A DNA stretch of 64,000 nucleotides from Candidatus Poribacteria bacterium. GTDB lineage: Bacteria > Poribacteria > WGA-4E > PCPOR2b. The notes under the pieces are model-generated. The model made no database searches. It was not told where the DNA came from and worked only from the letters and a program-made list of their open reading frames with translations. Shown in pieces: positions 6,999-53,453 of this stretch. The stretch's first letter is position 1. Each line of letters starts with the position of its first letter. The stretch lies in the NCBI GenBank assembly GCA_965208325.1, contig OZ242326.1, positions 448,001 through 512,000 of the forward strand, read 5' to 3'. A program made the translations under genes and the position numbers.

Positions 6999-7120
6999 AC
7001 AGCCGTTAAGCACAGCTCAATTAAGTTGCTTGGCAAATAAGAACATCTTGATGTTTTTCCCGAGCAGTTTTAACCTGCTTTCCAGCAGCCAACCGGACAT
7101 GTCAAATGGAGGTCATAACT

Positions 7121-8951: not shown

Positions 8952-9021
8952 AAGGGTTTCATTTGTGAGTGCGGTTTTCCCGCCAAAGCCGTCGTTTTTG
9001 ACATCCCGCCCGATAGAAAGT

Positions 9022-9786: not shown

Positions 9787-9858
9787 GTTGTACCTCCCGT
9801 GGAAGCGATGTGGAAAACGTATGTCAAGCTAACAACCTGTTTGCCGTTGTGCCGCTAA

Positions 9859-10830: not shown

Positions 10831-11135
10831 AATTTACGTTATGTTGCTGTTTGGTCGTGGTCTACTAACGGTCACTTGATACAAGCGTATCAAAACAACA
10901 TTCCTTCTGAAATTTATCACTAATTCTACCAAATGCAAGAATGGATTCTCAAGAAAATTGCGGTGATGGTTCGAACTAAAGATACCAATTGTACAGTTCG
11001 CATTCTGGTGATTGTTATCGCATGAAGCGTAGATGATTTCTACCAAGGACTCGCCGCAAAAACTAACTGGATAAAATCGTTTTGCCGTTATTGGCATTTC
11101 GGCATAATCACAAATTCATCGAACTGCGTTTTGTA

Positions 11136-11164
11136 TTGACTGAGCGGATCGACAGCAGTATTAT
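11136..11164 (+). promoter_or_regulatory. Putative sigma70 promoter
   Basis: TTGACT-17 bp-TATTAT upstream of the 11284 membrane protein gene. Confidence 0.45.
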
Positions 11165-11283
11165 AGCGCTGAACCAAATTTATTACTAAGGAATCCTCAC
11201 GTATTTGATTCGGGGCGTTAAATCTCTATGGCAATTCCTGGGTTTAACGACAGTTCTACTCGTTTCCTCAAATTTGCGCGTAC

Positions 11284-13191: not shown

Positions 13192-13234
13192 TAACGTAAG
13201 TCGAATAATTTCCCAAATTCTATAGCCGCAGACC

Positions 13235-34910: not shown

Positions 34911-35033
34911 TTCATCCAAAAACAGCTATGCGAAGACGGGAAACCAGCTTCCCAAATGGAGATAAAATATAAGCCTTGAGAACCTTTTGCCATTGTTAAT
35001 CGCCTTTTACTATTGATAAAGGAGGTGGGCGCA

Positions 35034-36401: not shown

Positions 36402-36451
36402 AATATTCCGATCGCCAGACGATGCCGCTGATATACAATTTTCATAAAGGT

Positions 36452-36634
36452 TAGGCCTTAGGCAGTTCAGTTAGTAGCAGCGCAATTTATTGCGCGTCCG
36501 GCAGGGCGTTCACTTCCTTGACCTGACATATTTTTTAGTGAAAACGGGAAGTAAAGAGCAATCTCTATCGCCTTCGCTATTCGCTCAGTTGCTCCCTACT
36601 ACGTACCTTTGGACGTTTAACCGCGTAAGTCCTA
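36452..36634. repeat. MITE-like element, copy 2 (inverted relative to copy 1)
   Basis: Ends TAGGCCTTAGGCAGTT...AACCGCGTAAGTCCTA; reverse complement aligns with 2200-2383. Confidence 0.85.
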
Positions 36635-37226
36635 ATTGTTCTAATGGAATGCACACGCCTCGAAAAAATGTCTCTTTTTCACGGAAATCCCGTGAAAAGT
36701 GCATCCAAAACTGTGTATTAGTAATAGCTAACGAAATGTCTTTCCGACGCCTCGCCGAGTCGGTAACTGCCACAATCAACGTTCAGTTGCGATTCAGCGA
36801 TTGTGAGCAACTCGGTGCAAACGGTTAATTTTAAACCACGTTGAAGAGCAGAAAGGAGGCGCCCGGTATGAAAAAAGTTGTGTTTCCAATTCGCCAATTT
36901 GATTCAATCGACACGGTATTCAGCGGGGGAGCCTCTGATTTCCGTCCCTCTCTCCACGCGGACGTTGGATGGGTTGCGGCATAGTTCACCGCACGTTGTA
37001 TGGAGCAGAAGCCTATCCGCCCAGCACTTCTTCTCGGGATTTTTTGCCATTCCGTATTCATCAATATACGTTTGGCAGTTCAGCAACCAGGACCGTATCG
37101 GTGCAATCCCTCCCTTTGAAGTTCCCGGTTTACGCGGCGAATTCCTGCATGAAAAGGATAAAGTTTACCTTGTTGCTAATGCGATAAATGGCTAGCCGCG
37201 TCAGCATTTTGGTGTTGTTACTTGAC

Positions 37227-37255
37227 TTGAGGGCGTTTTGTGCGTGTGGTATAAT
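37227..37255 (+). promoter_or_regulatory. Putative sigma70 promoter of the propeller cluster
   Basis: TTGAGG-17 bp-TATAAT with TG extended -10. Confidence 0.5.
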
Positions 37256-37352
37256 GTCGGATTTAGGAAACGTAAATGATTAGTAGCGGGGACCAGTTTT
37301 GGGCGTCGCTGCGTGATTCCAGTATGAATCAGAAGTCGGGAGGGGAAGCCCC

Positions 37353-40300
37353 GTGAGTATTTCAGGAGCAAAGCTGACATTAGACTGCCGTTGGTTCTTC
37401 GTTATCTTATCGCTATTCGGATGCGCCGGTACCTCGACTGACTATATACCGGAGGTAACGAAAAAGGATCTGCCTTGGAATGCAACCGCGCTTTTGAGCG
37501 ATCGGGTTAACGCGGTCGCAGCAGATGCCGAACATGTATGGGTCGCCACTGACAAAGGGGTCAATCGTTTCAATAAGCGTGAGAACACGTGGATAGGCTA
37601 TACTGTGGAAGATGGGCTGGCGAACAACAAAGTGTCCAGCGCAGCGATTGACGGAGATGTCGTTTGGTTTGGAACAGAGTCCGGCATTTCAAAATATCAG
37701 CCAAATAACGATAAATGGACAACCTACAACCGTGACGACGGTCTGCCGAGTAACCGCGTGTTGGCAATAGGTGTGGATGGAGTTTATATTTGGTTTGGCA
37801 CGGCTAAGGGTTTGTGCCGGTATAACAAAGCCATTGACGTGTGGGCGCTTCGCACCGTTGACGATGGCGGGTTGACCAGCAACCAAATTTCCGATATTGC
37901 AGTGGAGGACGAATATGTATGGTTTGCGACGGACGAGGGAGTTTCACGGTACGATAAAAAAATTGATTCGTGGACGCAATTGACCAAAAGTGAAGGTTTG
38001 GCGGACGAGAAAGTCACTACCATCGCAATTGAGGATGAATTTACTTGGTTCGGCACGAAAAATGCCGGTGTCAGCTTATACAGCAACGCTGAGCAGGCGT
38101 TTGTAAAGACATATACGCGAAACGACTTGCTTGAAACCGACAAGATTAATTACATCTTGGTCGACGGATTGTATGTCTGGATCGGAACAGCAAATGAAGG
38201 TGTTCAAAGATTCATCAAACCCGCCAATACGTGGATTCACTACAGCACAGAAGATGGGCTGCCGTCGTCAAACATAACGGCGATGGCTGTCGATGGCAAG
38301 TATATCTGGTTCGGTACGTATGAGGACGGACTGGCGCGATTCGACAAGATTAGTGGGCTTTGGAGCGCTGTCAAGAGAGAAGAAGGCTTAGTGAGCGATG
38401 ACGTGAAATCAATTGTTGAGCAGAATGGCAAGCTTTGGATTGGCACTGCGATGGGGCTAAGTCAATTTGACTTGCAATCTAGGCAGTGGAAAACCTTCAC
38501 CAAGGGGCAAGGACTTACAACGAATTACATCACACGCGTTGTCGCCGACGATGACGTAATCTGGGTGGGCACATCCAAGGGGGTGGGGCGGCATCAGAAC
38601 GGACGGTGGAAATTCTGGCAGCGGCAACACGGACTCCCCAGTGATTTTGTCGTGGATGTAGCGGTAGATAATCAATTGGTTTGGGTCGGTACACGCAATG
38701 GTCTATGTCGATTTGACGCTAAGAACGACAGGTGGCATACCTTCCATAGTCTAAAGAATACCTGGATAAATTCCGTCGTTGTTGATGGCGGTATGTTGTG
38801 GCTTGCGACGAACCGAGGATTAGCTCAATTATCAGACGCGAATAACAGCGATCCAACGGAGGTACAAATCGATTTTTATTCATCGCATTGTGCGGATTAC
38901 GCCAACATAGTCTTGGTGGTGGACGGTGCCGTCTGGATCGGCACACGGAATGGACTTACGAGATATGGGAAACACAAGAATAGTTGGCGCCATTTTACTG
39001 TTGAAGATGGACTTCCGAATAATAACGTCAGGACGCTGGCTGTAACGGAAAACGCGCTTTGGATCGGTACGCCGAGTGGGCTAGCCACATTACCTCGAAA
39101 TGGGTGGAACGCTTATTCGGAGTTGGGCTCGAGTGGATGGCAGCATTTCAACCTGACGCAGCCCGGGGCGGAGATGGGGCACGAAAATGTCCGGGACATC
39201 TGTGTCGTGGATGGTCAGGTCTGGCTGGCTACAATCGGCGGCTTGGGTGTGTACTCTCTCCAAAACAGCACGTGGAAAGCAATTCGTGCAACGGAACGAA
39301 CGACTGTTCTGCGTCATGGCGATGTCCACCACACTGCGCTTGATGGCTATTGGGTATGGTTTCTGTCATGGCCCAACACTTCCAACGGAGGAATAGTGCG
39401 GTATGACAAACGCACAAGAACTTGGGGTCATTTCATGAAAGAAGATGTGACGCCAATCGGACGAAACGGAGAGACGCGGTATATCAGCCAAATCAATTGG
39501 ATGGAGGTAACCGCTGATAGTGTATGGTTTGCGACCGATGGCGGTGTACTGGCTTATCACAAAATTTCGGACACGTGGCGGCACTACACGACTGAAGACG
39601 GGTTAGCGGCGGATAAAACGACAACGCTGACGGTTGATGGAAATGACGTATGGGTCGTTTTGAGGGATAACCGCATCTGCCGCTATCATCGAAATACGAA
39701 CGTATGGGATACGCATCAGGTGGTTCTTAAGGAAATTGCGCCGGGAATGGAATCGTTCCGTACGCGGATTTCGGCGGACAACCGGTATGTGTGGGCGCCG
39801 GCTCAGCGGGAAGGTGTGGCGCGTTTCGACAAGGTAAACCAATCGTGGCGCAGATACACATCGGCAGACGGCTTGTCGAGTGGAACAATCGCATTCACAG
39901 CAGTGGACAATAATGATGTTTGGGCTTACGGTGGAGCTAGCGGTTTAAGCAAGTACGACGAAAACACTGATAGCTGGCGTGTCATTGACGACAAAAAGGG
40001 TTTAGCTTCTAACCGGGTTCGTGAAGTCATTTCCGGCGAGGATTTTATGTGGGTGTTGTATGACCGCAGGTCGTGGGAAGAAGACGACTATGCGCCGGCA
40101 AGTGGACTGCACCGTGCCAATCAGACGTGGCAGCGATTTCGAGGGCACACGGACAACGTCGGCAACAATTTTACAGATGTGCAGGAAATGCGTGAAGTGG
40201 TGTGGTTTGGCAGTAATAATCACGGTGTCAGCCGATACGACAAGGCATCATCCTCATGGACTGTGTTCACGGAAGAAGACGGGTTGCTTAACAACCGCGT

Positions 40301-41357
40301 GATCTATCCATCCCTGAAGATTGATGGCAATTTTCTCTGGATGGGCGGTGGCAGCGGTATCAGCCGCTACGAGCTGCGCGATGATAGCTGGACCGTCTTT
40401 ACAGGGCGTGCATCCTTGCCGTCAGATGTTGTTCGCGCCGTGGCTGTCGATTCTCGTTACGTTTATTGCGGGACCGATCGGGGCGCAACCCGGTACGATA
40501 AGCGGTATGACCGATGGCTAGAAGGACAGATTATAGGAGACCCAGTAAACGCGCTCGCTGTCGATGAAAAATTCGTATGGATCGCGAGCGCAAAAGGGGT
40601 GATTCGGTTCGACAAGTCGGCGCATTTGACGGACTATCACGCTGAAGAAAACGGTCTAGCTGATACATTTGCTAAAGTGGCTGACGCCGCGGGCCGTACA
40701 TTGTGGATCGGCACTGAGAAGGGGGTGAGCAAATACAACACGCTTTCGGATGACCCGAACGCCTGGGAGACTTTTTCTCAGGCCGATGATGTAGACATTT
40801 TGCAATTAACTCAGAAATACGCCAACAGCCTTGTATACAACCGTGTTACCAGTATAGCTGTTGGCAATCGTTACGTCTGGGTAGGTACAGAAAGAGGCGC
40901 CAGCAGCTATGACATGAAGAAAGGTACATGGGAAACGTATACGAAGCATGATGGATTGCATCATAACGAAGTGAGCAGTATTTGTATTGACGGCGATAAG
41001 GTGTGGTTTGGAGTATCCGGGGGAGTCAGCAAGTTGGATATTCGGACAGAAGAATGGAGCGCATTCTTACCATCTGACGGATTAGCAAGTGGTCACGTTA
41101 CCTGTATCGCAGCGAGCGATGATTTCGTATGGTTCGGAACGTTTGAATCGGGCGTGTCTAGACACCACAAGGCAACTGCGACGTGGAGAAACTACACGCA
41201 GAGGGATGGGCTTAGCCACGATCGCGTTTTCGACATCGCTGCGGAAGAGGATTTCATCTGGGTGGGTACTGAGCGCGGATTAAGCCGGTATGACACGATG
41301 ACGGACACCTGGACAATCTTTACGAAGCACTTTGACAGAGAAGATGATAGGAGATGA
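37353..41357 (+). CDS. Giant beta-propeller repeat lipoprotein (Reg_prop-like), paralogue 1
   Basis: LFGC lipobox-like; ~40-45 aa repeats DGL.SN.V..IAVDG..VWFGT..G.SRYD....W over the whole length; no kinase domain. Confidence 0.85.
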   Translation: MSISGAKLTLDCRWFFVILSLFGCAGTSTDYIPEVTKKDLPWNATALLSDRVNAVAADAEHVWVATDKGVNRFNKRENTWIGYTVEDGLANNKVSSAAIDGDVVWFGTESGISKYQPNNDKWTTYNRDDGLPSNRVLAIGVDGVYIWFGTAKGLCRYNKAIDVWALRTVDDGGLTSNQISDIAVEDEYVWFATDEGVSRYDKKIDSWTQLTKSEGLADEKVTTIAIEDEFTWFGTKNAGVSLYSNAEQAFVKTYTRNDLLETDKINYILVDGLYVWIGTANEGVQRFIKPANTWIHYSTEDGLPSSNITAMAVDGKYIWFGTYEDGLARFDKISGLWSAVKREEGLVSDDVKSIVEQNGKLWIGTAMGLSQFDLQSRQWKTFTKGQGLTTNYITRVVADDDVIWVGTSKGVGRHQNGRWKFWQRQHGLPSDFVVDVAVDNQLVWVGTRNGLCRFDAKNDRWHTFHSLKNTWINSVVVDGGMLWLATNRGLAQLSDANNSDPTEVQIDFYSSHCADYANIVLVVDGAVWIGTRNGLTRYGKHKNSWRHFTVEDGLPNNNVRTLAVTENALWIGTPSGLATLPRNGWNAYSELGSSGWQHFNLTQPGAEMGHENVRDICVVDGQVWLATIGGLGVYSLQNSTWKAIRATERTTVLRHGDVHHTALDGYWVWFLSWPNTSNGGIVRYDKRTRTWGHFMKEDVTPIGRNGETRYISQINWMEVTADSVWFATDGGVLAYHKISDTWRHYTTEDGLAADKTTTLTVDGNDVWVVLRDNRICRYHRNTNVWDTHQVVLKEIAPGMESFRTRISADNRYVWAPAQREGVARFDKVNQSWRRYTSADGLSSGTIAFTAVDNNDVWAYGGASGLSKYDENTDSWRVIDDKKGLASNRVREVISGEDFMWVLYDRRSWEEDDYAPASGLHRANQTWQRFRGHTDNVGNNFTDVQEMREVVWFGSNNHGVSRYDKASSSWTVFTEEDGLLNNRVIYPSLKIDGNFLWMGGGSGISRYELRDDSWTVFTGRASLPSDVVRAVAVDSRYVYCGTDRGATRYDKRYDRWLEGQIIGDPVNALAVDEKFVWIASAKGVIRFDKSAHLTDYHAEENGLADTFAKVADAAGRTLWIGTEKGVSKYNTLSDDPNAWETFSQADDVDILQLTQKYANSLVYNRVTSIAVGNRYVWVGTERGASSYDMKKGTWETYTKHDGLHHNEVSSICIDGDKVWFGVSGGVSKLDIRTEEWSAFLPSDGLASGHVTCIAASDDFVWFGTFESGVSRHHKATATWRNYTQRDGLSHDRVFDIAAEEDFIWVGTERGLSRYDTMTDTWTIFTKHFDREDDRR

Positions 41358-41444
41358 ATCGAACAGAGGGTGTGCAATCCAGTTGCTATGCTTTTTTCCT
41401 CAATTATTCGGACGAATGGTTAAGAAGGCGAAGGGAATTTAGTT

Positions 41445-42380
41445 ATGACCGAAACAAGTAAGGGCGGTCTCGCAATCGCTAAACACATTGCATCGTCCTA
41501 CGGTGATGACTCCGGTGTCAAGGTAATTTTCGTCGGCGGTTCAGTCTCACGCGGCTGCGCAGACGAATACTCCGATCTTGAAATCGGTATCTTCTGGGTG
41601 GAGAGGCCATCCGTTCGCATGCGGAAGGCTGCTATCAAACGTGCCGGCGGAGAACTATGGTCGTTGAACGAGTCGCAGGGGAGTGAGAAGTGGGGACTCA
41701 ACGAAATTACTGTCAATGGAAAATCCTACGCGGGTATGTTAATGGTTTCTACGATACATCTCAGTGTCACAGAAACGGAAACCCGCCTATCAGATGTTAT
41801 TGATTGTTACGATACTGACATTGAGAAGCAGGGATTGCTTTCCGCCATCCAACACGGATTTCCGTTGCACGGCACGGCGATTCTTGGGCGATGGCGGGCT
41901 AGGGCATCCGCATACCCTGATGAGCTTGCACGGCGAATGGTTCGAGAGAACCTCTGGATGGCACCGTGGTTCTGCCCTGAACAGTATATTGGCAGAGACG
42001 ACCTTATCGTCCTGTACGATCACTATATTCAGATTGCGCAGGGCATTCTCAAGGTGCTGTCGGGGCTGAACCGTGTCTATTATGCAACTCCTTATACCAA
42101 GTGGATGGATTGGCTAATTCAGCAGATGCCGATTGCCCCGCCGGACCTGTCAGTTCGGTTGAAGTCAATTTTCCATGCGGGTGCCGCATCCGCGTGGATT
42201 GAACTTAAAGCGTTGGTTTTCGAAACCTTATGCCTTGTTGAGGATCACATGGCTGATGTAGGTACGCCAGTTTCGGGCGAAAAGAATCCACCCCACGTCA
42301 ACATTGCATGGGCGAAAAGGCGGTGGATGCCTCACTCACCGTACAGCCTCATGCGGAATATCGCCGCCGCCGAATATTAG
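41445..42380 (+). CDS. Nucleotidyltransferase-fold protein (DUF4037-like)
   Basis: GGSVSRGCADEYSDLE pol-beta NTase motif; helical C-terminus with LNRVY...KW. Confidence 0.7.
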   Translation: MTETSKGGLAIAKHIASSYGDDSGVKVIFVGGSVSRGCADEYSDLEIGIFWVERPSVRMRKAAIKRAGGELWSLNESQGSEKWGLNEITVNGKSYAGMLMVSTIHLSVTETETRLSDVIDCYDTDIEKQGLLSAIQHGFPLHGTAILGRWRARASAYPDELARRMVRENLWMAPWFCPEQYIGRDDLIVLYDHYIQIAQGILKVLSGLNRVYYATPYTKWMDWLIQQMPIAPPDLSVRLKSIFHAGAASAWIELKALVFETLCLVEDHMADVGTPVSGEKNPPHVNIAWAKRRWMPHSPYSLMRNIAAAEY

Positions 42381-42390
42381 GATTACTTAT

Positions 42391-43170
42391 ATGGCAAGCA
42401 TTTACGACTTTCCCGACGTCTACGATGCCGTGCTTCGATCGCCGCCTGATCAGATTGAAACAGAGGTTAACTCCATCCGGCAGTTACTGGGGGGGAGGCG
42501 AAGTGTAACCAAAGGCAGGATACTCGAACTTGCTTGTGGGACGTGTGCGCATGGAATACTTCTCGCTAAAAGCGGTTTTTCTGTAACAAGCATGGACATC
42601 AATCCGAACATGCTTGCCAGTGCACAGAATCGAATGGAAACTGCAGGAGTAAATATCCGACTCATTCAAGGTGATGTGGTTGATTTTAACCTAAGCGATA
42701 CAGGGTTTGACAGTGCGATTTTTATGGCAGAGACCTTCCCTCTCATTACCGCGTATGAAGATGTCAAGAGCCATTTTCAATCTGTGAGACGTCACCTCAA
42801 ACCGGGCGGACTCTACGTTATTGATATGGATAAACATTACTTCGCACCTCCAAAACGGGAAATAGGAGTGTGGAGTGAAAAAACAGTTCGCCTTGGCAAC
42901 GGACAAGTGGAGGTCTGGCTTGAGGATTATCCAGGTGATTGGGTTGAAGGAGTAAATCGCATGGCGATGCACTGCCGTATTCACCAAAATAATTCAGTCT
43001 ATGAGACAACCGACAATTGGAATATCCGGTATTATAACCCTTGGATGCTATCCCTACTGGCGCAAACATTGGAAGGATGGCGGTTAAAGGGATTCTTCTC
43101 GCGTCACAATCTGAACCAGGATATTGCCGAAGAATCACACTATTTCACAGTTTTGGAAAAAGCGTTTTAA
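42391..43170 (+). CDS. Class I SAM-dependent methyltransferase
   Basis: ILELACGT, MDINPNML, QGDVVDF, HLKPGGLYVID. Confidence 0.88.
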   Translation: MASIYDFPDVYDAVLRSPPDQIETEVNSIRQLLGGRRSVTKGRILELACGTCAHGILLAKSGFSVTSMDINPNMLASAQNRMETAGVNIRLIQGDVVDFNLSDTGFDSAIFMAETFPLITAYEDVKSHFQSVRRHLKPGGLYVIDMDKHYFAPPKREIGVWSEKTVRLGNGQVEVWLEDYPGDWVEGVNRMAMHCRIHQNNSVYETTDNWNIRYYNPWMLSLLAQTLEGWRLKGFFSRHNLNQDIAEESHYFTVLEKAF

Positions 43171-43192
43171 ACCATACACCGAGAGGCGCGTG

Positions 43193-46100
43193 ATGTTTCG
43201 CCAAGTCCACAAGATTTTGGGGTTTATGATACTCCTGTCCGTGGGGAATGGTCTAGCACAAGGCTCCGAGAACGTGCAACGCAAGTTTCATGTAGCGGAA
43301 AGGCCGGCAGCAGACAACCAACTTCTTAGCGACCGCGTTCTATCACTAGCCGTCGATTCACGCTATGTGTGGGTTGGAACAGATCGGGGTTTGAGTCGGT
43401 ACGATAAACTGCGCGGCGAGTGGGACAATTTTACCGTTAAAGACGGCTTGGCGCATAACACTGTGGTTTCCATCGCTCTAGACAGCGATTTGGCGTGGAT
43501 TGGTACACGTGATGGTGTGAGTCGTTTTGACGTGCATACAAATACCTGGACACGCTACATGCCGCGTGATGGCTTGGCAGGGCGAATCATCTCCTGCGTC
43601 GCTGTGGATTCGAGATTCATCTGGTTTGGCACACCAAACGGACTGTCGCGCTACGACAAAGAGACGAATAGTTGGGCGCAGAAACGTGAAAAGGACGGAC
43701 TTGCCGGGGACGCTGTGACGCGCATTACCATTGATGAAGACTACATCTGGATTGGTACACGGAATGGGATCTCCAGATACGACAAACTCACCGATTCATG
43801 GAACAACTACGACAAAAACAGCGGTCTCGTTGACAACAGAGTGACGGCTATAGCCGCAGACGGAAATTTGGTTTGGTTCGGTACGGAAGAAAAAGGCCTC
43901 AGCCTCTATGACCGGCGGAATTCGGATTTCGTCAGGACGTATACCAAAAAAGATCAGCTGGCGAGCGATCACATTAGGGCATTAGCAGCCGATGGGACAT
44001 CACTGTGGTTAGGAACCGCCGATCGCGGTGTACAGCGATATATCTTATCTGTGAACACATGGCAGCAATACACGGTTTTAAATCCTGAAAAAACGGAAAA
44101 TACGGCGCCAACTGGGTTAATTTCCAATCACATAACGGCGATTGCACCTGACGGTAACATGGTGTGGTTCGGCACACACGAACATGGACTGGCGCGGCAT
44201 GACTTGCTCAGTGGAACGTGGAAATTTTACGGCGAAGTAAAAGCGCTGAGCGACAACGATGTTAAAGATGTGGCTGTAACGGACGAATCGGTTTGGGTAG
44301 CGACGCGATTTGGATTGAATCAAGCATCGTATCCGGAAGTTGCGGAGTTTTCGACTGGATGTGATTGGCGAACATTTCGTAAAGCGGACGGTTTGGCGGA
44401 TAACTATATCACTTGTGTTTTGCAAGTGGAAGAAGACGTTTGGGTCGGTACGCCGAGTGGTTTGGGGTTGCGGCATGGAGACGAGGGTGAGTGGGTGTTT
44501 TTTTCGACGAAAGATGGACTTCCGCATGACTTCGTGACCTGCCTGGCGTGGCAACCGGCGGCCAGAGACACCGAGAAGCAGAATTCATGGGAAAGTCCGG
44601 GGAATGTGAAGGGGAAGACTGACGGCAGCACGCAATCAGGTTTTGATTCGCGTCTATGGATTGGGACAAAAGCCGGACTTTCGACATACGAACCGCAAAG
44701 CCGCCAATGGAATACGCATCCGTCGCCATTGCAAATTTCAGGTCGTGTTAGCGACATTGTATTCGGCGGTGATTTCGTCTGGATCGCCACGGAGTATGGA
44801 CTTGTTTATTATGATGGGACCTCAGGTGAATCAGGAAAACTGACCGTCAAGGACGGTTTACCTGCAGACATGATTAACACGGCTGCTATAGGCAATCGGT
44901 CTATATGGGTTGGCACACTGTCGGGCTTATCACAGTTGAGCAAATCATCATTCAAAACTCGTTCGCACGCGTCCGCCACGCACTTACCGCGTTCAAACGT
45001 CAGGGCGGTTGCCGTTGATGGCAAAGACGTCTGGGTTGGAACTCCGTCTGGTTTGTATTGCGTTGCTGGCGATGCATTTACACATTACACACGCGAGAGC
45101 ACCGATGGCGGGCTTGTTAGCGATAATGTTAAAGCTATTGAGATCAACGGCGGCAAAGTTTGGGTCGGTACCACTGCGGGCTTTAGTGTCTTGGATAAGC
45201 ATGGAAAGAAATGGTCGAAACATGCAGCTGCGGCAACCACAGAAGTGCTGCGATCCAATTGGGTAAGCAAGCTCACCGAGGATGGAACTGACATTTGGTT
45301 CGGCAATTGGAATGACTCTGCAGATGGCGCCATTGTAAAGTACGATAGACGAACAGATACCTTTCAATTCTTCGACAAAGATGACCTACCATTGAAACCC
45401 GCCGGCCGACCGATTACGCACATCCACGTACTAACCGTGGGGGAAAATGGGGTTTGGGCCGGCACTAACGGAGGGCTGTTACGCTACGACAAAACGAAGG
45501 ATTCATGGCGTCATTACACCGTGTACGACGGTCTTCCGAACAATGAAGTCTGGAGTATCATCTTCGATTCGCCCTACGTATGGACAGCACATATTGGCGG
45601 CGTGGTTAGTCGATATTCGATGGCAATGGATGAATGGACATCTTTCGAAATTTCGCCAAGCGAAACATGGAGCGGAGTCGGGTCCATGGCAGTTGACCCG
45701 CAATATGTTTGGGTCACGACGATGTGGGATGGGCTCAAGCGATACGAAAAATCAACGGGTACATGGACAAATGTCACGGAAGTACACGGTTTGGGTGATA
45801 ACGAAGCGAACGATCTACTTGTTGACGGTGAGCATGTCTGGGTCACGGGTTGGGGGGATGCCAGCCGATACAATCGGCGAACCGGGGAATGGAATGTCTT
45901 CAGCCGGTGGCGCGTGCTCTCCGGTCCGAATATTTACCTCAGTAGAGGTCTGAACGGAGTTTGGCTTGCATACCCATGGTTAAGTTGGGGCGATGCAATC
46001 GCCTCAAAATTTCACAATAAATCCGGTTCATGGACAACATTGAAAGTGCCGGAAATTGAAGGGGGCTATTTTGGACGTACCATGCAGGTTGTGGAATCCA

Positions 46101-47332
46101 TTGACAGTGTTTGGTTCGCGGTGGAATGGCTGGGATTGGCTCGATATAATAAAGCCTCAAACGACTGGACATTCTTCGATGAAAAAAATGGTCTTGCAAG
46201 CGGCGAGCTGCATGAGCACTCGATAGTCGTCGATGAAAACTATGTCTGGGTGGGAACGGCTGGTGGATTGGGTCGGTATGACATTGAGAGTGAGGTCTGG
46301 ACGACTTTCACGCAGTCGCCATTAACGCCGATTGGACGTGCTCCAAAAGTGTACGCCATTGCGGCTGAAGCGCGTTTTGTGTGGTTGGGAACCGCAAACG
46401 GCCTGCATCGGTATGACAAAGATACAGGCCGATGGTACTCCCCGCGACCAATGGGAAGACACGGTGAAATGGTGAATAATCCAAGCATCGCAAGTATTGC
46501 AATTGACGAAAAATATGTTTGGCTAGGTACTAACGAAGGTGTCTTGCGGTATGATAAGGCCGGAGACTACTGGGAAGTGTACACAGATGAAAACGGTCTT
46601 CCATCCAACGCTATCCGAGATGTGGCAGTCAAAAGCTACGAAGTGTGGATTGCGACGAATCATGGTGCCGCGGTATTCAACCGACTCTCAGACGATCCAA
46701 ACACTTGGGAGCCGCACACACAGGAGCTGGAAATCAAAGGGATGCAAGATGTCAAAAAGTACGCACAGACGCTGTTGAGCAATGATGTCCGGTGCATCGG
46801 CGTCGGCGCTAGGTCTATATGGTTCGGTACGGACAAAGGCGCCTGCCGCTACGATAGAGAGAAAAAAACATGGAAACCCTTAATTGCAAATATTGCATCT
46901 TCATCACAAATTGCCGGATTCTCAGAGTCTCACGCCCATCACACACCGAATATTGCCGACATCAGCGCAATCGCCGTTGATGAAGATTTTGTCTGGTTCG
47001 GCACCGAGCACGGCGCGATGAAGTATCACCTAGAATCCGGGAAATTCGACACGTTCACTCAATCGGACGGTTTAGCGGGAAATATCGTTACGTGTATCGC
47101 TCTCAACGACGAGGAAATCTGGTTCGGATCGGCGAACGCGGGGGTCGCACGTATGGATAAAGCCACAGGTAAATGGCGCGTCTTTGACACAAGCCATGGT
47201 CTGCTCCACAATCGAGTGGAAGCCATCGCGTTTGACGGGGACCAGCGGTGGTTCGGCACAGAGCTTGGACTGTGTCGGTATGATCCAAAAACCGAAACAT
47301 GGACAAGTTATGCGGAGGGTTTCAATCCTTGA
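43193..47332 (+). CDS. Giant secreted beta-propeller repeat protein, paralogue 2
   Basis: Signal peptide ending GLA-Q; same repeat, colinear with paralogue 1. Confidence 0.85.
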   Translation: MFRQVHKILGFMILLSVGNGLAQGSENVQRKFHVAERPAADNQLLSDRVLSLAVDSRYVWVGTDRGLSRYDKLRGEWDNFTVKDGLAHNTVVSIALDSDLAWIGTRDGVSRFDVHTNTWTRYMPRDGLAGRIISCVAVDSRFIWFGTPNGLSRYDKETNSWAQKREKDGLAGDAVTRITIDEDYIWIGTRNGISRYDKLTDSWNNYDKNSGLVDNRVTAIAADGNLVWFGTEEKGLSLYDRRNSDFVRTYTKKDQLASDHIRALAADGTSLWLGTADRGVQRYILSVNTWQQYTVLNPEKTENTAPTGLISNHITAIAPDGNMVWFGTHEHGLARHDLLSGTWKFYGEVKALSDNDVKDVAVTDESVWVATRFGLNQASYPEVAEFSTGCDWRTFRKADGLADNYITCVLQVEEDVWVGTPSGLGLRHGDEGEWVFFSTKDGLPHDFVTCLAWQPAARDTEKQNSWESPGNVKGKTDGSTQSGFDSRLWIGTKAGLSTYEPQSRQWNTHPSPLQISGRVSDIVFGGDFVWIATEYGLVYYDGTSGESGKLTVKDGLPADMINTAAIGNRSIWVGTLSGLSQLSKSSFKTRSHASATHLPRSNVRAVAVDGKDVWVGTPSGLYCVAGDAFTHYTRESTDGGLVSDNVKAIEINGGKVWVGTTAGFSVLDKHGKKWSKHAAAATTEVLRSNWVSKLTEDGTDIWFGNWNDSADGAIVKYDRRTDTFQFFDKDDLPLKPAGRPITHIHVLTVGENGVWAGTNGGLLRYDKTKDSWRHYTVYDGLPNNEVWSIIFDSPYVWTAHIGGVVSRYSMAMDEWTSFEISPSETWSGVGSMAVDPQYVWVTTMWDGLKRYEKSTGTWTNVTEVHGLGDNEANDLLVDGEHVWVTGWGDASRYNRRTGEWNVFSRWRVLSGPNIYLSRGLNGVWLAYPWLSWGDAIASKFHNKSGSWTTLKVPEIEGGYFGRTMQVVESIDSVWFAVEWLGLARYNKASNDWTFFDEKNGLASGELHEHSIVVDENYVWVGTAGGLGRYDIESEVWTTFTQSPLTPIGRAPKVYAIAAEARFVWLGTANGLHRYDKDTGRWYSPRPMGRHGEMVNNPSIASIAIDEKYVWLGTNEGVLRYDKAGDYWEVYTDENGLPSNAIRDVAVKSYEVWIATNHGAAVFNRLSDDPNTWEPHTQELEIKGMQDVKKYAQTLLSNDVRCIGVGARSIWFGTDKGACRYDREKKTWKPLIANIASSSQIAGFSESHAHHTPNIADISAIAVDEDFVWFGTEHGAMKYHLESGKFDTFTQSDGLAGNIVTCIALNDEEIWFGSANAGVARMDKATGKWRVFDTSHGLLHNRVEAIAFDGDQRWFGTELGLCRYDPKTETWTSYAEGFNP

Positions 47333-47365
47333 CGGTCCAAGGATTTCCAGCAGAGAAATGACAAT

Positions 47366-50300
47366 ATGAAGAAACAGGTGAAATGCACCATACAGATTTT
47401 GCATTACTTATTGCTAATCTCCCTGATCGGGAGCGGTTTGGCTCAGCTTAACTCACAGGACGAAAAATCGGCTGTTCTTGAGGAATCGGCCCTTGCCCAA
47501 CTGGCATCAGAAAATACGTTGGTGAGCGATAACATCCGCTGCGTTTCAACTTCAGCCGACTACGTTTGGGTAGCAACAGACCGAGGCGTCAGCATCTACC
47601 ATAAGGCGGATAGCCGCTGGACGAAGTTAGATTGGGAAGACGGTTTAGTCTCGGACGATGTCACAGCGTTGTCCGCCGATCGAGAGTTTCTCTGGGTAGG
47701 TACAACTCTGGGAATCAGCCTATACAACATAGAGAATGGCAGTTTGACGAAGTTTCAACGGCGCGACGGTTTAGCAAGCAACAAAGTCACCGCAATCGCT
47801 GTGGACGGAAATTACACCTGGGTCGGTACGGAGTCCGGTATTTCGCGTTATGATAAGACAACGGGTACATGGGCATTACAACGTGAGAAAGACAAAGATC
47901 GGTTTAACTCCATTACCGCAATTGCTGTGGAATCGGAGTATGTTTGGTTTGGTACAGAAAATGGACTACGGCGATACGATAAGTTAAAAGACGCATGGAA
48001 CGCATACACGAAAGAGGACGGGCTGGTGGAAAACCATGTCCGCTGTATTGCATTAAGCCCTGATTCTGTTTGGGTGGGAACAGAGAAATCGGGTGTGAGC
48101 AAATACAGTGTAGCCAACCAATCCTTCACCGAAAGCTATACGCGGACAGATCTATTGGAAAGCGATTTCATCAGGGCGATTGCCGTTGACGGCGACAATG
48201 TCTGGTTTGGTTCCGCGGACCGCGGTATTCGTCGGTTTATTTCAACGGTGAATACTTGGTTTAAGTACACGACTGGCAAGGGTTTAGTTAGCGACCACAT
48301 TTCTTGGCTGCATGTTGATGGCGGTCACATTTGGATCGGCACCTACGAGTTCGGTTTGGGTCAATTCGATAAAACGAACGATGGCTGGACATGGTATTCA
48401 AAGCGAGATTCGCTGGTGTCCAATCAAATCAAATCCGTCGTATCAACTGAGAAGGCACTCTGGATTGGTACGAATAAAGGCTTAAGTCGCTATGCACCTC
48501 AAAAAAAGTCGTGGAAAACGTTCACGAAGGCAGATGGTTTAGTAACAAATTATATTACGCATCTGACGAAGGGTGTGGATAATAGCACGATATGGGTCGG
48601 GACGCCACTGGGGTTAGGGGCACTAGTCGGAAAACAGTGGAGATTCTATACGGAAAGGCATGGACTGGCAAATGATTACGTTACCGGTATCAGTGCGGTT
48701 CCCGGTAAGATTTGGGTTGCGACCAAGGGGGGAGTGAGTTCTTTTTCCGTAACCGCAAACCGGGAAACTGGGATTGAACAGACTAGCGCATCAACAATTG
48801 GGCAAGACTCACCGCACGTTTCATCCGGCGTCACCCTTTATGATTCACAAACGTATCTTACAAGCAAGTGGGTAACCGCCGTGCTGGTGATTGGGCAAAA
48901 TGTGTGGGCGGGCACAACAGATGGGCTGTACCGGATAAACGATGAAACAGGTGAATTTGAGCCCGTTCTGGAAGTTAGGAATTATGTTAACGCACTTTCC
49001 TCTAGTGTTGATAGGCAATTGCTGGTTGGCACGCGAAACGGCTTGTGGATCATAGGTGGCGAAAAGTCATCACATATCACGGAGGGATTGCCGAACTTGA
49101 ATGTCAGGAGCGTCGCGGAAGACAACGGTACCATCTGGGTAGGAACTCCGGGCGGTGTTGCGCGTCTGAATGACGGAAACGTTAATCAGGTTATTACGAT
49201 GCAGGCTGCCGGTTTGCTTCACGATAATGTACGGAGCATTGTGGTCTCGGATCAGCAGGTTTATTTCGGTACTGCCGCCGGTCTCGCTATCTATAACGTA
49301 GAGAAAAATCAGTGGGAACAATATAAACCGTATTACGACACAGAAATCCTTAAAGAGGAGCAAATTCGTTGGATAGAGTTGGATGAGCACAATCTATGGG
49401 CTCTTAATTGGTCGTCTTCTCCGAATGGCGCAATATTAAAATTCGATCGGCGTACTGAGACTTGGATCGAATACACGAAATACGCTCTGCCTCTCTCTTC
49501 AAATGTCCCGTTTATCACCGAAATTCACCGCCTTGCGGTAGGTGAAGAGGATGTCTGGTTTGCCGCTGGAGACGGCGGCGTACTTCGGTACAATAAAGCA
49601 TCGGATACATGGACCCACATCACTATGCCCACTGGGATACCGGGGCACCAAGCTATGCTAATCGAGCTTGACGGACCGAATGGCGTTTGGGTTTCATTCC
49701 AAGGCGGCATAGCAGGGAAGTACGATACGCGAACGCAGCAATGGGAGACCGTGAAGGTGACAGATTCTGGTGCAGGAACGCGCATTGAGGACATTGCTTG
49801 CACAAACGACTACGTCTGGTTCGCTACAAATAGCGCAGGGGTCAGAAGATATGAACAAGCCACGCAAACCTGGAAATCGTACACAGAAGCGCAAGGTATG
49901 GCGTCGCGGTTTACTCCGTGGATTGACGCGGACGGCGAAGGCGTGTGGACTAGCGGCGGTACTTCTTGGTCATGGGTCAGTGACCGCGGGGTGCAAGGAG
50001 TGAGTTTCTATCGCCCAAAAGAAAACAGTTGGACATTTTTTGACCGGAGAAACGGTTTGCGTGCAGAGGCGACCGGATACGGACAGGTTGGCAAAGATTA
50101 TGTTTGGTGCTTTGGAGGGGAAGGAATCAACAGATACCATAAAACAAGGAAATCTTGGACTTCCTTCAATTCGAGCGATGGTTTGATAGTCCATAATGTC
50201 CGTGCAGTCGCAAGAGACAGTGACGGTTTCTGGGTAGGTTCGGATGAAAGCGGTATCTGGAAGTATGCGCAAGCCTCTGGTGCATGGACAGTGTTCACTG

Positions 50301-51448
50301 TTGAGGACGGTTTGATTGATGGCAGCGTCCAACCTTACGCGCTCAAAGTTGGTCCGGAACATGTGTGGGTTGGAACGTCACAAGGATTAAGCCGATACGA
50401 TAAGAGGAGGAGGACATGGATTTCGTTAATGAAGCCGGCCACATTGGCGGACCGCCGAGCCGTCTCTGTTGCTGCTGATAGCCAATTTGTATGGGTCGGA
50501 ACACACCGCGGCTTGAGTCGATACGACAAAAGGTACGACAGATGGAGACATTTTAGGACTGAAGAGCAAGAAAACGAGGATAATGGAGACGATGAGGACG
50601 ATAAAACTAAGCAAGAAAAAAGGAACCAACTGGTGGACAACAGTGTCGTAGATCTATCTGTCGGTGTACGGTACGTTTGGATCGCGACTGAAGGCGGGGT
50701 GGGCCGGTACGACAAAATCGCTAATCGTTTTGAATCGTATACCCACGAGAACCAACTGCCGAGCGTCGATATCCGAGCGGTTGCAGAGAATGAAAGCGAT
50801 GTGTGGATTGGGACGAAAAACGGTATTGGCAAGCACAGTATTCTTTCGGAAGATCGAAATGCCTGGGAAACATTTAACACTGCGATTGAAATCCTGCCAA
50901 CAGTGAAAGGTAAGTACGCTAAGAGCTTGGAAAATGATGACGTGCGATGCCTTGCAGTCGATGATTTTCGAGTTTGGGTCGGAACCAAAACGGGCGTGTC
51001 ACTCTATGAAATTGAAAAAGGGACGTGGAGTACCTTTACTCAAAAGGACGGGTTGGCAAGTGACGAGGTAAGTTGTATTACTTTTGACGAGGGGCGCGTA
51101 TGGTTTGGAAGCGGGCGCGGTGTGACAGTTTATGATACGGAAAATGATACTTGGAAGGTTCTTACGGAAGCGGATGGGTTGGGTTCAAATCTAATCACGT
51201 CAATTGCAAATCACCGGAGCCAAATCTGGTTTGGCACATTCGATAGTGGAGCCACTGTGTATGACAAAATCACCGGAAAATTCACGACCTTCACCAAAGC
51301 TGATGGCCTTCCTCATAATGGCATCCTGTCGATCGCGGCTGACGGTAACTGTCTCTGGTTCGGCACACACGGCGGGTTGACCCGATACGATTCTTTAGCT
51401 GGGACGTGGACAGTCTATACTGAGCGATTTGACTATGATGGGCTGTAG
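47366..51448 (+). CDS. Giant secreted beta-propeller repeat protein, paralogue 3
   Basis: Signal peptide ending GLA-Q; same repeat, colinear with paralogues 1 and 2. Confidence 0.85.
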   Translation: MKKQVKCTIQILHYLLLISLIGSGLAQLNSQDEKSAVLEESALAQLASENTLVSDNIRCVSTSADYVWVATDRGVSIYHKADSRWTKLDWEDGLVSDDVTALSADREFLWVGTTLGISLYNIENGSLTKFQRRDGLASNKVTAIAVDGNYTWVGTESGISRYDKTTGTWALQREKDKDRFNSITAIAVESEYVWFGTENGLRRYDKLKDAWNAYTKEDGLVENHVRCIALSPDSVWVGTEKSGVSKYSVANQSFTESYTRTDLLESDFIRAIAVDGDNVWFGSADRGIRRFISTVNTWFKYTTGKGLVSDHISWLHVDGGHIWIGTYEFGLGQFDKTNDGWTWYSKRDSLVSNQIKSVVSTEKALWIGTNKGLSRYAPQKKSWKTFTKADGLVTNYITHLTKGVDNSTIWVGTPLGLGALVGKQWRFYTERHGLANDYVTGISAVPGKIWVATKGGVSSFSVTANRETGIEQTSASTIGQDSPHVSSGVTLYDSQTYLTSKWVTAVLVIGQNVWAGTTDGLYRINDETGEFEPVLEVRNYVNALSSSVDRQLLVGTRNGLWIIGGEKSSHITEGLPNLNVRSVAEDNGTIWVGTPGGVARLNDGNVNQVITMQAAGLLHDNVRSIVVSDQQVYFGTAAGLAIYNVEKNQWEQYKPYYDTEILKEEQIRWIELDEHNLWALNWSSSPNGAILKFDRRTETWIEYTKYALPLSSNVPFITEIHRLAVGEEDVWFAAGDGGVLRYNKASDTWTHITMPTGIPGHQAMLIELDGPNGVWVSFQGGIAGKYDTRTQQWETVKVTDSGAGTRIEDIACTNDYVWFATNSAGVRRYEQATQTWKSYTEAQGMASRFTPWIDADGEGVWTSGGTSWSWVSDRGVQGVSFYRPKENSWTFFDRRNGLRAEATGYGQVGKDYVWCFGGEGINRYHKTRKSWTSFNSSDGLIVHNVRAVARDSDGFWVGSDESGIWKYAQASGAWTVFTVEDGLIDGSVQPYALKVGPEHVWVGTSQGLSRYDKRRRTWISLMKPATLADRRAVSVAADSQFVWVGTHRGLSRYDKRYDRWRHFRTEEQENEDNGDDEDDKTKQEKRNQLVDNSVVDLSVGVRYVWIATEGGVGRYDKIANRFESYTHENQLPSVDIRAVAENESDVWIGTKNGIGKHSILSEDRNAWETFNTAIEILPTVKGKYAKSLENDDVRCLAVDDFRVWVGTKTGVSLYEIEKGTWSTFTQKDGLASDEVSCITFDEGRVWFGSGRGVTVYDTENDTWKVLTEADGLGSNLITSIANHRSQIWFGTFDSGATVYDKITGKFTTFTKADGLPHNGILSIAADGNCLWFGTHGGLTRYDSLAGTWTVYTERFDYDGL

Positions 51449-51485
51449 AGCTTAATACACAATACACATTGAGGAAGTTAATCAG

Positions 51486-53453
51486 ATGAGAATATGGAAT
51501 TCAAATGCGAAGATTTCAAAGTTTATCTTCTACAGCATGATGTTGTTTCTACTGTTCGGGACTACTGTCAACCGGGCGGCGGCGGAAGATGTGTACAGTC
51601 TATTCGGGAAACTATTCCTTTCAGGACGCGTAGAATATGATTTCACGAATAAACGAGACTTTCTCGCGGACACAGAAGAGGATGCCGTCCGGCAAAACGA
51701 GTTTGATTTTGACCGAGTGTTTCGGCGCGGCTTCCACAGTGTCATGATTATTGAGGAAACTGCTGGCAACGTCAAGAACATCTTGAGTTTGGGAGAAGTG
51801 CCAACCACCTTTACGAAATTCACCTTTGATCAGATTGACCTCTCGGGTGTACGATGGGATGTCCGATCAGAGCGCACCGATTGGACGATATTGATGGTAC
51901 CCGGTTTACTCAACCCAGTAATTGGCCAAGAAAATGTGCATGGATCGGGAATTGGTATACGGGAAGTAACGAAGTTTGGGAAGTCTAAGTTTGGAGCTTC
52001 GTGGTACTTCCGCGATACGCCTGTATGGGCATTGGATTTGGAGACTAACTTTGCAAACTATGGTTTGAAGGCGGAAATTGCGGCGACTCCGAAAAGTGCA
52101 TTGAGGAAAAACTTCAGTTCTCGATTTGACGCGACGACGACGGTGTTTAAGGCGTTCCGAACTGTTGGTGACACGATTTTCCAGGGTGAGGCCTTTCGCG
52201 TCGGTCCGCGATTCGATGCCTCTCGCTCTGTTGGGGATAACGACGATCAGGACCGATATAGCGATAACACAACGTTAGATCCGCCCTCATTGATTATTCC
52301 GGGCGATTTGGACAAGAATAACAACGGAACGTTCGATTACGAGGATGATATTCTACTGTTTGACGTTGATGAAGATTTTCTTGACGAAAGGGATCGGAAT
52401 AACAACGGAATACGAGATGCGGAAGAGAACGATAGAGACCCAAATTACGAATTTGACGCTGGCCTGCGGGGGATGCGTCTTTTTATGAAACGCAAAACAA
52501 TGCGCGGAAACACGTCCACTGACCTTGAAATCGGAATGCAATTCGAAAAAGATCTAATGGAAAGGGAATTTCAGCGCCCTTCAACAGCAACAAAGGCGTT
52601 CACCAATCTCGTCTACAAAGACAATCTCTCTCAGAATTCTGCTCTGGTGCTTGAGAACGAACTGAAGTTGGTGAGAGACCACATCCCAGATGAGACCTGG
52701 TACTTTGCGGGATTCTTAAGCGAGACAGAGTGGCAACTCTACCGGGCTAATCCCAACGTGCAGAAATCTGAGGCGGAAGGCGGGTTGGCGTTTTTTAATG
52801 TAGATGGCGGCGTTGAGGTAGAGAAGCGGCGAATAGATCCGCTCTTGATGCAGGACGACGCAATCAATACAGCCAAAGTCACTTGGGAATATTCGGGTAT
52901 AAAGCACATGGTCACGACTGGACGCGTCAAACTGCGATATAATTTGGATTTCAACCTTGACAACGAGCATTACGAGGTCGGCATCATCAAAACAAACTAC
53001 CGAATGCGGCCATCCAAATCGCTTGAGATTACACCGATGTTCAAATACACGGTTCGCAACGGCTTTCAGATGGCAGAAGACCGTTTGGAACTTCTCCCAT
53101 TGGCCGGGACAATCGAGGGTGAAGAGATTACACGCAATTTGCGGCTGAATGTAATTGAAGCTGCAGATGTTCGTGACATGGCGGCAGCCTTTATTTTGAA
53201 AACCGTTTATCAGTTCACGAAGACTATCAAGATCACGGGAGGCGGGCAGGTGTTACTCTTTAACGATATGCTTGAAGATGGAAACGATTTTGTTCGCCAA
53301 GCCATTCTAGCTGAAATGGAAAAGAGCTTTGTAGCTTACGAAAAGGAAATGTTTTTGCACATAGGTGCCAAATACATCGACCAACGCGCAAACGCGGACT
53401 TGAACGACGATAATTACATGGAAACATTCGTGCGTGTATTCGGGAAGTTCTAG
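51486..53453 (+). CDS. Putative outer-membrane beta-barrel protein with acidic Ca-binding-like loops
   Basis: Signal peptide (AAA-E); alternating beta-strand pattern; DLDKNNNGTFD and DRNNNGIRD loops; C-terminal VRVFGKF ending in Phe. Confidence 0.6.
   Translation: MRIWNSNAKISKFIFYSMMLFLLFGTTVNRAAAEDVYSLFGKLFLSGRVEYDFTNKRDFLADTEEDAVRQNEFDFDRVFRRGFHSVMIIEETAGNVKNILSLGEVPTTFTKFTFDQIDLSGVRWDVRSERTDWTILMVPGLLNPVIGQENVHGSGIGIREVTKFGKSKFGASWYFRDTPVWALDLETNFANYGLKAEIAATPKSALRKNFSSRFDATTTVFKAFRTVGDTIFQGEAFRVGPRFDASRSVGDNDDQDRYSDNTTLDPPSLIIPGDLDKNNNGTFDYEDDILLFDVDEDFLDERDRNNNGIRDAEENDRDPNYEFDAGLRGMRLFMKRKTMRGNTSTDLEIGMQFEKDLMEREFQRPSTATKAFTNLVYKDNLSQNSALVLENELKLVRDHIPDETWYFAGFLSETEWQLYRANPNVQKSEAEGGLAFFNVDGGVEVEKRRIDPLLMQDDAINTAKVTWEYSGIKHMVTTGRVKLRYNLDFNLDNEHYEVGIIKTNYRMRPSKSLEITPMFKYTVRNGFQMAEDRLELLPLAGTIEGEEITRNLRLNVIEAADVRDMAAAFILKTVYQFTKTIKITGGGQVLLFNDMLEDGNDFVRQAILAEMEKSFVAYEKEMFLHIGAKYIDQRANADLNDDNYMETFVRVFGKF

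Follow-up and report, generated by a model that had tools for sequence, protein, structure and literature searches.

The window analysed here is a stretch of 64,000 nucleotides (G000:C1:448001-512000) within a complete 4.7-Mb genome of Candidatus Poribacteria, and all named relatives of its proteins likewise come from Candidatus Poribacteria. It encodes three giant proteins built of Reg_prop beta-propeller repeats and, behind the third of them, a protein of 655 amino acids (aa) with the features of an outer-membrane beta-barrel. On balance, we favour the view that one giant quadruple-propeller lipoprotein and its dedicated barrel form a two-protein outer-membrane complex, which would by analogy act on a glycan or a polymer resembling lipopolysaccharide (LPS). 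Genomics and one in-silico test give good support to the link between propellers and barrel; what the pair does we infer by analogy only. The original prediction, made from the sequence of the window, had proposed an envelope system of three propeller paralogues plus the barrel. The tie between propeller and barrel gene holds in co-occurrence (98 of 121 genomes), adjacency (66 of 73) and predicted docking, whereas the unit is a pair and the propeller is triplicate only in two families. The four genes concerned are:

37353-41357, plus strand: propeller paralogue 1 (P1 clade), 1334 aa, signal peptide with lipobox-like LFGC, four tandem Reg_prop propellers (~29 blades)
43193-47332, plus strand: propeller paralogue 2 (P2 clade), ~1379 aa counted from M24 (the open reading frame (ORF) opens at 43124), signal peptide ending GLA-Q, without Cys
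47366-51448, plus strand: propeller paralogue 3 (P3 clade), 1360 aa, signal peptide ending GLA-Q
51486-53453, plus strand: barrel partner protein, 655 aa, signal peptide, beta-rich, C-terminus ...FGKF

The Propeller and Barrel Genes Form a Conserved Pair

We searched 121 Poribacteria genomes, counting a giant propeller at E <= 1e-60. A full-length barrel orthologue with 55-94% identity was recovered in 98 of them, and the other 23 contained only weak paralogue matches or fragments. A giant propeller was likewise found in 98 genomes and missed in 23. These are the same 23 genomes that lack the barrel (20 are listed individually and three were identified from genus tallies). They comprise genera g3, g4, g12, g13, g15 and g17 and parts of g5, g6, g7 and g11. 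Within genera the pair is patchy, being present in 23 of 32 g5 genomes and 41 of 45 g7 genomes. Since a fifth of the sampled species do without the pair, the propeller-barrel complex is accessory.

Positions of both genes were listed for 73 genomes. The propeller homologues are not scattered and unlinked to the barrel gene but lie next to it in 66 of these Poribacteria genomes: upstream, on the same strand and at most 5.5 kb away in 65, downstream in one. Among the remaining seven, the two genes are 8 kb to 1 Mb apart or on opposite strands in four and on separate contigs in three. Both genes are nevertheless retained where they are unlinked (G090, G113 and G029), and separations of 29 kb, 247 kb and 1 Mb were recorded for such pairs. 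This retention speaks against pure hitch-hiking.

A comparison of 13 loci revealed no neighbour besides the pair that is conserved across families; an extracytoplasmic function (ECF) sigma factor, a nucleotidyltransferase and a methyltransferase recur only in the same genus. We conclude that the conserved unit consists of one giant propeller lipoprotein and the barrel, and not of four genes.

The pairing recurs in a distinct lineage. A 574-aa barrel homologue, 62% identical to the 567-aa barrel relative P0134 described below, is encoded on a 5.4-kb contig binned to a Fermentibacterales metagenome-assembled genome. Its gene shares 4 bp with the end of the preceding ORF, which is 5'-truncated, at least 877 aa long and contains Reg_prop repeats (24 bits, cut-off 20.4). 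This ORF matches propeller copy 1 in BLASTP (E 4e-10). No barrel homologue was found in 60 other sampled genomes of the same phylum. A literature search with partial coverage yielded no paper on the propeller-barrel pair, so that in the literature searched the system is indeed undescribed, as had been suggested.

Each Propeller Protein Consists of Two Tandem Double-Propeller Modules

The three giant propellers are true paralogues, as supposed: pairwise BLASTP alignments run colinear from end to end with 34%, 35% and 34% identity. With Reg_prop scores (PF07494, cut-off 20.4) of 127.8, 109.2 and 118.8 bits they belong to this repeat family. The translations contain the three landmark motifs read from the sequence at the outset, the LFGC of copy 1 and the GLA-Q signal-peptide ends of copies 2 and 3.

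An AlphaFold2 model of residues 640-1334 of copy 1, built on a 26-row alignment with a predicted local distance difference test score (pLDDT) of 85.8, is all-beta and has 59 strands, which make up about 15 blades in two propellers. The N-terminal half contributes 14 W-x-G-T motifs with a spacing of about 42 aa. Together, the model and the motif count give about 29 blades in four propellers, in agreement with the 28-30 blades and about four propellers estimated beforehand. Sequence matches in the PDB were restricted to sensor domains of Bacteroides hybrid two-component sensors (4a2l, E 3.9e-34; also 3v9f, 3va6 and 3ott), which align to residues 171-538. At the level of structure, the model was closest to BT4663 (4a2m/4a2l, E 1.5e-24), then to BT3049 and BT4673 and thereafter to PorZ (5m11, E 2.4e-18). 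Because the C-terminal half was modelled with about 15 blades, the N-terminal half has 14 blade motifs and the matches are to sensor domains, we conclude that each protein consists of two sensor-type double-propeller modules in tandem and nothing else. Indeed, the C-terminus of each follows right after the last blade. The earlier description as kinase-less was correct: in a Pfam search at E <= 0.01, none of the three proteins matched a transmembrane, kinase, receiver or Y_Y_Y family.

Hybrid two-component sensors continue from their propellers into Y_Y_Y, a transmembrane helix, HisKA/HATPase, a receiver and an AraC-type output. The tandem double propeller of Reg_prop repeats is common to the Poribacteria proteins and the Bacteroides sensors (BT4663, BT3049, BT4673; 4a2l/4a2m, 3v9f, 3ott/3va6), of which BT4663 is titled a heparin/heparan-sulphate sensor. 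Unlike these sensors, the proteins described here carry two modules per chain and therefore four propellers, have a lipid anchor or only a signal peptide, and are partnered by a barrel gene. All output features of the sensors (Y_Y_Y, transmembrane helix, kinase, receiver, DNA-binding output) are absent from the three propellers.

Membership of the PorZ family fails as well. The NCBIfam PorZ model NF052228 (cut-off 260) gave 104.5 bits and 108.9 bits for two of the proteins and no match for the remaining one. None of the three has the C-terminal domain (CTD; Por_Secre_tail) of type IX cargo, and no CTD match of the genome falls within G000:C1:485353-499436. The comparison with PorZ drawn in the original prediction stands at the level of fold (5m11) and falls at the level of family, with scores under the cut-off and no CTD. 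Both sensor and PorZ membership thus break down on defining features, and the proteins do not map fully to a characterised system. Rather, they represent a new architecture for the propeller fold of glycan sensors and PorZ, with two fused modules, a probable lipid anchor and no output domain.

Bacterial lipoproteins carry the pattern [LVI][ASTVI][GAS]C where their signal peptide ends. The L-F-G-C of copy 1 resembles it with a non-canonical F at position -2. Copies 2 and 3 have no Cys, and copy 3 reads LIGS at the site where an orthologue of the same genus has the lipobox LIGC. A lipobox was found in six of six inspected single-copy orthologues and in addition in G029, G104, G015, G004 and G113. 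The boxes are canonical in single-copy orthologues and in most orthologues of the P1 and P3 clades of the propeller tree (see below), and within P1-P3 they come and go. The lipoprotein anchor that had been proposed is probably ancestral, a lipobox being present in all single-copy orthologues inspected.

Further Reg_prop ORFs of 1455-2160 aa lie elsewhere in the genome (G000:C1:1384245-1390767 and 1834903-1839153), one of them beside a CTD-bearing ORF and a weak PorV-family match.

The Partner Gene Encodes a Probable Barrel of an Unannotated Family

The 655-aa protein begins with a hydrophobic signal and ends with an aromatic residue (...FGKF). It matched no Pfam family even at E <= 10 and no NCBIfam model at E <= 0.01. 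In a 22-row alignment the mean column identity was 70%. An insertion of about 80 residues (aa ~245-325), rich in Asp and Asn, is invariant in it and looks calcium-loop-like. The AlphaFold2 model contains about 24 long strands and is weak (pLDDT 57.9). Foldseek returned 21 matches at E <= 0.001, all transmembrane barrels with a TM-score of about 0.2, and VIA gave Z 10.7-14.5 to many unrelated transmembrane barrels. Signal peptide, C-terminal aromatic residue and an all-beta transmembrane barrel fold are therefore all found, the last on a low-quality model, and the protein is probably a large outer-membrane beta-barrel, for which the structural matches fix the fold class only.

A sequence search over 1.84 billion representatives gave 83 barrel matches at E <= 0.001. 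Full-length near relatives among them were restricted to one cluster representative with 62% identity and to the 567-aa protein P0134 (34% identity). The acidic motif and the strands that follow it recur in matches of 700-1100 aa. These matches too have no Pfam family, showing only weak sub-threshold hints to OmpA_membrane and SlpA_C. The few named distant relatives are hypothetical proteins of Spirochaetota and Gemmatimonadota. In the protein atlas the barrel met only unnamed clusters (Poribacteria, Gemmatimonadota, Latescibacterota), and a hit to DUF6029 at 0.91 serves as a lead only. The pair defines an unannotated barrel family.

Two larger barrel paralogues were noticed in the same genome. 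One, of 781 aa and with the acidic motif, lies in L031 (G000:C1:4164000-4180000) within 4637-11586. It has a sub-threshold SlpA_C match (27 bits, cut-off 35). Three genes precede it, beginning with that of a CTD-bearing protein of 700 aa and continuing with an ISL3 transposase and then a PorV-like gene (42.6 bits, cut-off 90). The other, of 1095 aa and with a lipobox-like N-terminus, lies in L032 (G000:C1:2822000-2841000) within 6914-14584. It is flanked by a Wzc-like chain-length/tyrosine-kinase gene and a TolQ/ExbB-like gene, a context of the polysaccharide-export type.

The First Propeller Is Predicted to Dock on the Barrel

The complex modelling suggested along with the original prediction was run with barrel residues 34-655 and the N-terminal propeller of copy 1 (residues 26-400), each with its own alignment. 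We chose this propeller because it is the best conserved, with 49-51% identity to the mostly single-copy "type-0" propellers (see below) vs 36-37% for the rest of the protein. The predicted interface passed its controls: ipSAE values were 0.69, 0.69 and 0.67, and the best of three controls reached 0.00. Partner pLDDT was at least 81 and contact agreement between the runs at least 82%. The ipSAE mark applied here is reached by 116 of 157 solved complexes and by two of 215 mismatched pairs, a calibration that holds only roughly for runs with own alignments. The prediction hence supports binding of barrel and propeller, without demonstrating it.

Predicted contacts involve the barrel hairpin turns 189-191, 228-229 and 383-386 with adjoining strand ends, and propeller residues 271-296, 315-316 and 332-335. 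In the barrel model the contact turns are on the face opposite the long acidic insertion, and for this reason we infer that the docking face, formed by short turns, is periplasmic.

Lipoprotein-barrel pairs of the outer membrane include LptD-LptE, BamA-BamB, SusC-SusD and PelB-PelC. The Poribacteria pair resembles them in that a lipoprotein is encoded with a large barrel and predicted to bind it. It differs from them in having no sequence relation and in the size and make-up of the lipoprotein, which is about 150 kDa and consists of propellers only. We propose the following arrangement. In the giant lipid-anchored partner, the double-propeller module familiar from PorZ and the Bacteroides glycan sensors would occur twice in tandem, and the second partner would be a dedicated large beta-barrel of an unannotated family. 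The first and most conserved propeller would dock on the barrel face with short turns. By analogy, the propeller array may bind a carbohydrate polymer, either a glycan or an LPS-like molecule, and the barrel may anchor this array or conduct the polymer. In the lineage studied here, the propeller partner would be available in three diverged copies.

Several observations weigh against this proposal. The perfect co-occurrence is not independent of adjacency, because a single deletion takes out two genes that are usually adjacent. Two pair-less genomes, G018 (L034 13927-14444) and G112 (L035 11255-11650), still contain relics of the barrel gene, with no trace of a propeller in the flanks analysed. 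The Fermentibacterales label of the distant contig is uncertain, because only one of 61 sampled genomes of that phylum has the pair, though the lineage is distinct. Across families, the pair has no conserved carbohydrate-active, transporter or type IX neighbour. The barrel model is poor, with pLDDT 57.9 and a TM-score of about 0.2 to any solved barrel. Interface conservation is not above background in either protein, random sets reaching the observed mean in fractions of 0.37 and 0.40. The missing CTD of the propellers, and the persistence of a SprA-like and both PorU genes in the 23 genomes without the pair, add to this list where a role in type IX secretion is concerned (see below).

The barrel relics in G018 and G112 are short and frame-broken and look like traces of whole-locus deletions.

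Co-loss by single deletions and the lack of enrichment at the interface would suit an explanation without any complex: the two genes would stand side by side because the locus has a shared ancestry, and the propellers would work by themselves in the periplasm, as binding or sensor proteins. We regard this as very improbable. Both genes are kept at distances of 29 kb, 247 kb and 1 Mb, a distant lineage shows the same pairing with the genes overlapping by 4 bp, and the complex prediction passed while controls stayed at 0.00.

Propeller Triplication Is Confined to Two Families

A quick maximum-likelihood tree of 24 propellers revealed four clades, P1, P2, P3 and type-0. Long stems lead to P1-P3, which group together with support 100, and each of the three includes families f1 (genera g1 and g2) and f2. 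Because each contains both families, the triplication appears to predate the f1/f2 split, and in this tree it seems specific to these two families. Type-0 unites the propellers of the single-copy families f3, f4, f5 and f8 with one further copy from genus g2, which is unlinked. The genus of the genome studied here has probably lost type-0. Most lineages possess one propeller copy, and G090, a member of the four-copy genus g2, has kept only the unlinked type-0 propeller and the barrel. The hetero-oligomer of three paralogues envisaged in the original prediction is therefore not needed.

Between families, the single-copy propeller is 62-80% and the barrel 71-85% identical. The pair is conserved, and under strong constraint, across a whole candidate phylum, whose members are uncultivated sponge symbionts. 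P1 and P3, by comparison, are 54-56% identical over a split where the barrel has 71%: the duplicated propeller copies diverged fast. Such divergence, the long P1-P3 stems and the patchy, accessory distribution within genera (23 of 32 in g5, 41 of 45 in g7) are what one might expect if the propellers were surface-exposed host-interaction or adhesion proteins of the symbiont, of the eukaryote-like repeat kind, which the barrel merely exports or anchors. However, the single-copy propeller is strongly conserved, unlike typical fast-evolving adhesins, and the docking face is read as periplasmic, so that we consider a role in adhesion quite improbable.

Some copies are interrupted. A P2 orthologue in G010 (L006 6638-11959) is broken into ORFs of 1035 aa and 332 aa with about 1.2 kb between them, the barrel gene of G003, from the same genus, has an in-frame TAG, and several g2 propeller matches have in-frame stops. 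These interruptions may reflect decay or assembly errors.

Possible Relation of the Pair to Type IX Secretion

PorZ of Porphyromonas gingivalis is reported to consist of two beta-propellers and a CTD, to bind A-LPS (anionic LPS) and to act together with PorU and two barrels, PorV and PorQ (PMC5121618, PMC8545088). It is also reported to have a C-terminal CTD of the beta-sandwich type and to be exported by type IX secretion (PMC5121618), and to act at the cell surface (PMC8545088). PorZ-PorQ is hence a carbohydrate-binding double-propeller protein with an outer-membrane barrel, and the pair described here offers a propeller fold match and a barrel, with carbohydrate binding assumed by analogy. 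At its most specific, our proposal would assign to the pair a task similar to that of PorZ and PorQ within the type IX attachment complex. Of the specific hypotheses, such a PorZ/PorQ-like role leads, though it is unproven.

The genome provides the context in which PorZ operates. A PorU sortase scored 427.4 bits (cut-off 420) and a second PorU-like gene is present; at least eight PorV/PorQ-family genes are over the cut-off, and CTD-bearing ORFs number in the dozens. A SprA/Sov-like protein reached 160.6 bits, under the cut-off of 200. No ORF of the genome was over the NCBIfam cut-off for PorZ. GldM_4th was not found, and its control likewise matched nowhere. A literature search for Poribacteria and type IX secretion returned no paper with both terms in the title. 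The two PorU-like genes (~2100 aa) and the SprA/Sov-like gene (2188 aa) lie outside the window, at G000:C1:4021620-4027895, 3715230-3721577 and 3089393-3095956.

We asked whether the pair follows type IX genes in the 121 genomes. The SprA-like gene is present in 120 and the PorU paralogues in 121 and 119, so near-universal that covariation with the pair is non-discriminating. Since the SprA-like gene and both PorU genes are kept in the 23 pair-less genomes, the pair is not required for type IX secretion and is accessory to it at most. Physical proximity is found in some lineages. All 14 g2 genomes have PorU in convergent orientation 2-10 kb past the barrel, which counts as one evolutionary event. 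G040 has a PorV-family gene after the PorU near the barrel. In the distant G004 the second PorU paralogue lies 291 bp upstream of the type-0 propeller on the same strand, and G111 has a PorU-PorV pair 10 kb from the propeller-barrel pair. In the genome studied here, PorU is megabases away.

These data bear on the idea that the pair is a lipoprotein-based counterpart of PorZ-PorQ, in which the propellers bind an anchor glycolipid and present it to the PorU sortase while the barrel keeps them in place at the outer membrane. In its favour, the propeller model matches the fold of PorZ, and PorZ has the partners and ligand mentioned above; the genome has PorU, SprA-like and PorV-family genes and many CTD ORFs and no PorZ over the cut-off; PorU adjoins the pair in genus g2 and G004, and the 781-aa barrel paralogue is downstream of a PorV-like gene and a CTD protein. 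Nevertheless, hybrid two-component sensors are closer than PorZ by sequence and by structure, the propellers differ from PorZ in their doubled number and in having a lipoprotein signal instead of type IX export, and the CTD is missing. The barrel matched neither PorV nor PorQ models (NF033709, NF033711) at E <= 0.01, and its 655 aa are about twice the model length of 326-354 positions. In most lineages, this genome included, PorU is not near the pair, pair-less genomes retain the SprA-like and both PorU genes, and we would place the docking face in the periplasm, while PorZ is reported to act at the cell surface (PMC8545088). We therefore rate such a counterpart as possible, though doubtful. 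A fuller version appears rather unlikely to us. There, Poribacteria and at least one other lineage would possess an unrecognised envelope machine, in which the quadruple-propeller lipoprotein, docked under or on a novel barrel of about 24-28 strands, handles a glycan or glycolipid so that type IX cargo can be attached. The machine would be a CTD-less lipoprotein replacement of PorZ-PorQ outside Bacteroidota, and the three paralogues here would give one barrel three ligand specificities. If the pair does attach cargo in a type IX system outside Bacteroidota, it would show how the attachment step works without PorZ.

A Possible Role in Glycan Handling

TonB-dependent and SusC-type transporters contain plug and receptor domains. 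Neither a plug nor a TonB-dependent receptor domain was matched by Pfam in the barrel even at E <= 10, and structural matches to such barrels are generic. This argues against the pair being a device for glycan capture, uptake or export, similar to SusCD or PelBC and unrelated to type IX secretion. In support of such a device, the closest solved relatives of the propellers are glycan sensors, including the heparin/heparan-sulphate sensor BT4663, polysaccharide secretins and SusC-type barrels are, with many other barrels, among the matches of the barrel model, and the 1095-aa barrel paralogue adjoins a Wzc-like chain-length/tyrosine-kinase gene. Yet the structural matches of the barrel spread over many unrelated barrels at Z 10.7-14.5, and the pair has no conserved neighbour that encodes a carbohydrate-active enzyme, sulfatase, synthase or transporter. 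A pure glycan device is accordingly an unlikely explanation in our estimate. If it were true, it would bear on how these symbionts handle polysaccharides of the host or the environment. In either case, the pair offers a concrete target of only two proteins, open to experimental tests and to expression in a laboratory host.

Neighbouring Genes

The spacings of 33 and 37 bp reported earlier between copy 2, copy 3 and the barrel gene match the ORF coordinates. Copies 1 and 2 are separated by two unrelated genes, which corrects the earlier description of the locus:

41445-42380, plus strand: DUF4037/nucleotidyltransferase-like gene, 311 aa, PF13228 25.6 bits
~42391-43170, plus strand: S-adenosylmethionine-dependent methyltransferase, ORF from 42304, likely start M30

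The DUF4037 gene was also found in the same-genus locus L013 and not between the copies in L006, and P1 and P2 are contiguous in L023. Comparing these three loci, we rejected the nucleotidyltransferase and the methyltransferase as parts of the system; they are a genus-specific insertion between copies 1 and 2. Upstream, an ECF-type sigma factor gene (window 35013-36401) encodes Sigma70_r2 and r4 and a C-terminal extension of about 270 aa without Pfam match. It was likewise rejected as a system part, its upstream placement being kept only within the genus (74.5% identity in L013). The roughly 950 bp between the sigma gene and propeller 1 (window 36402-37352) contain no convincing ORF and no Rfam match, and a gap of about 860 bp is found at the equivalent place in L013. 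An Rfam scan of window 34000-56000 returned nothing at gathering score. Promoter and terminator scans were at chance level (24 vs 20.3 expected and 18 vs 19.6 expected), and none of the four sequencing runs containing the stretch, all from one study, is an RNA run. A promoter-like site, TTGAGG-17-TATAAT with TG, was noticed at 37227-37255. Ordinary neighbours include an Rce1-like CAAX protease (window 29546-30376), a BatA-domain protein (31704-33491) and, directly after the barrel gene on the minus strand, groEL (53681-55318).

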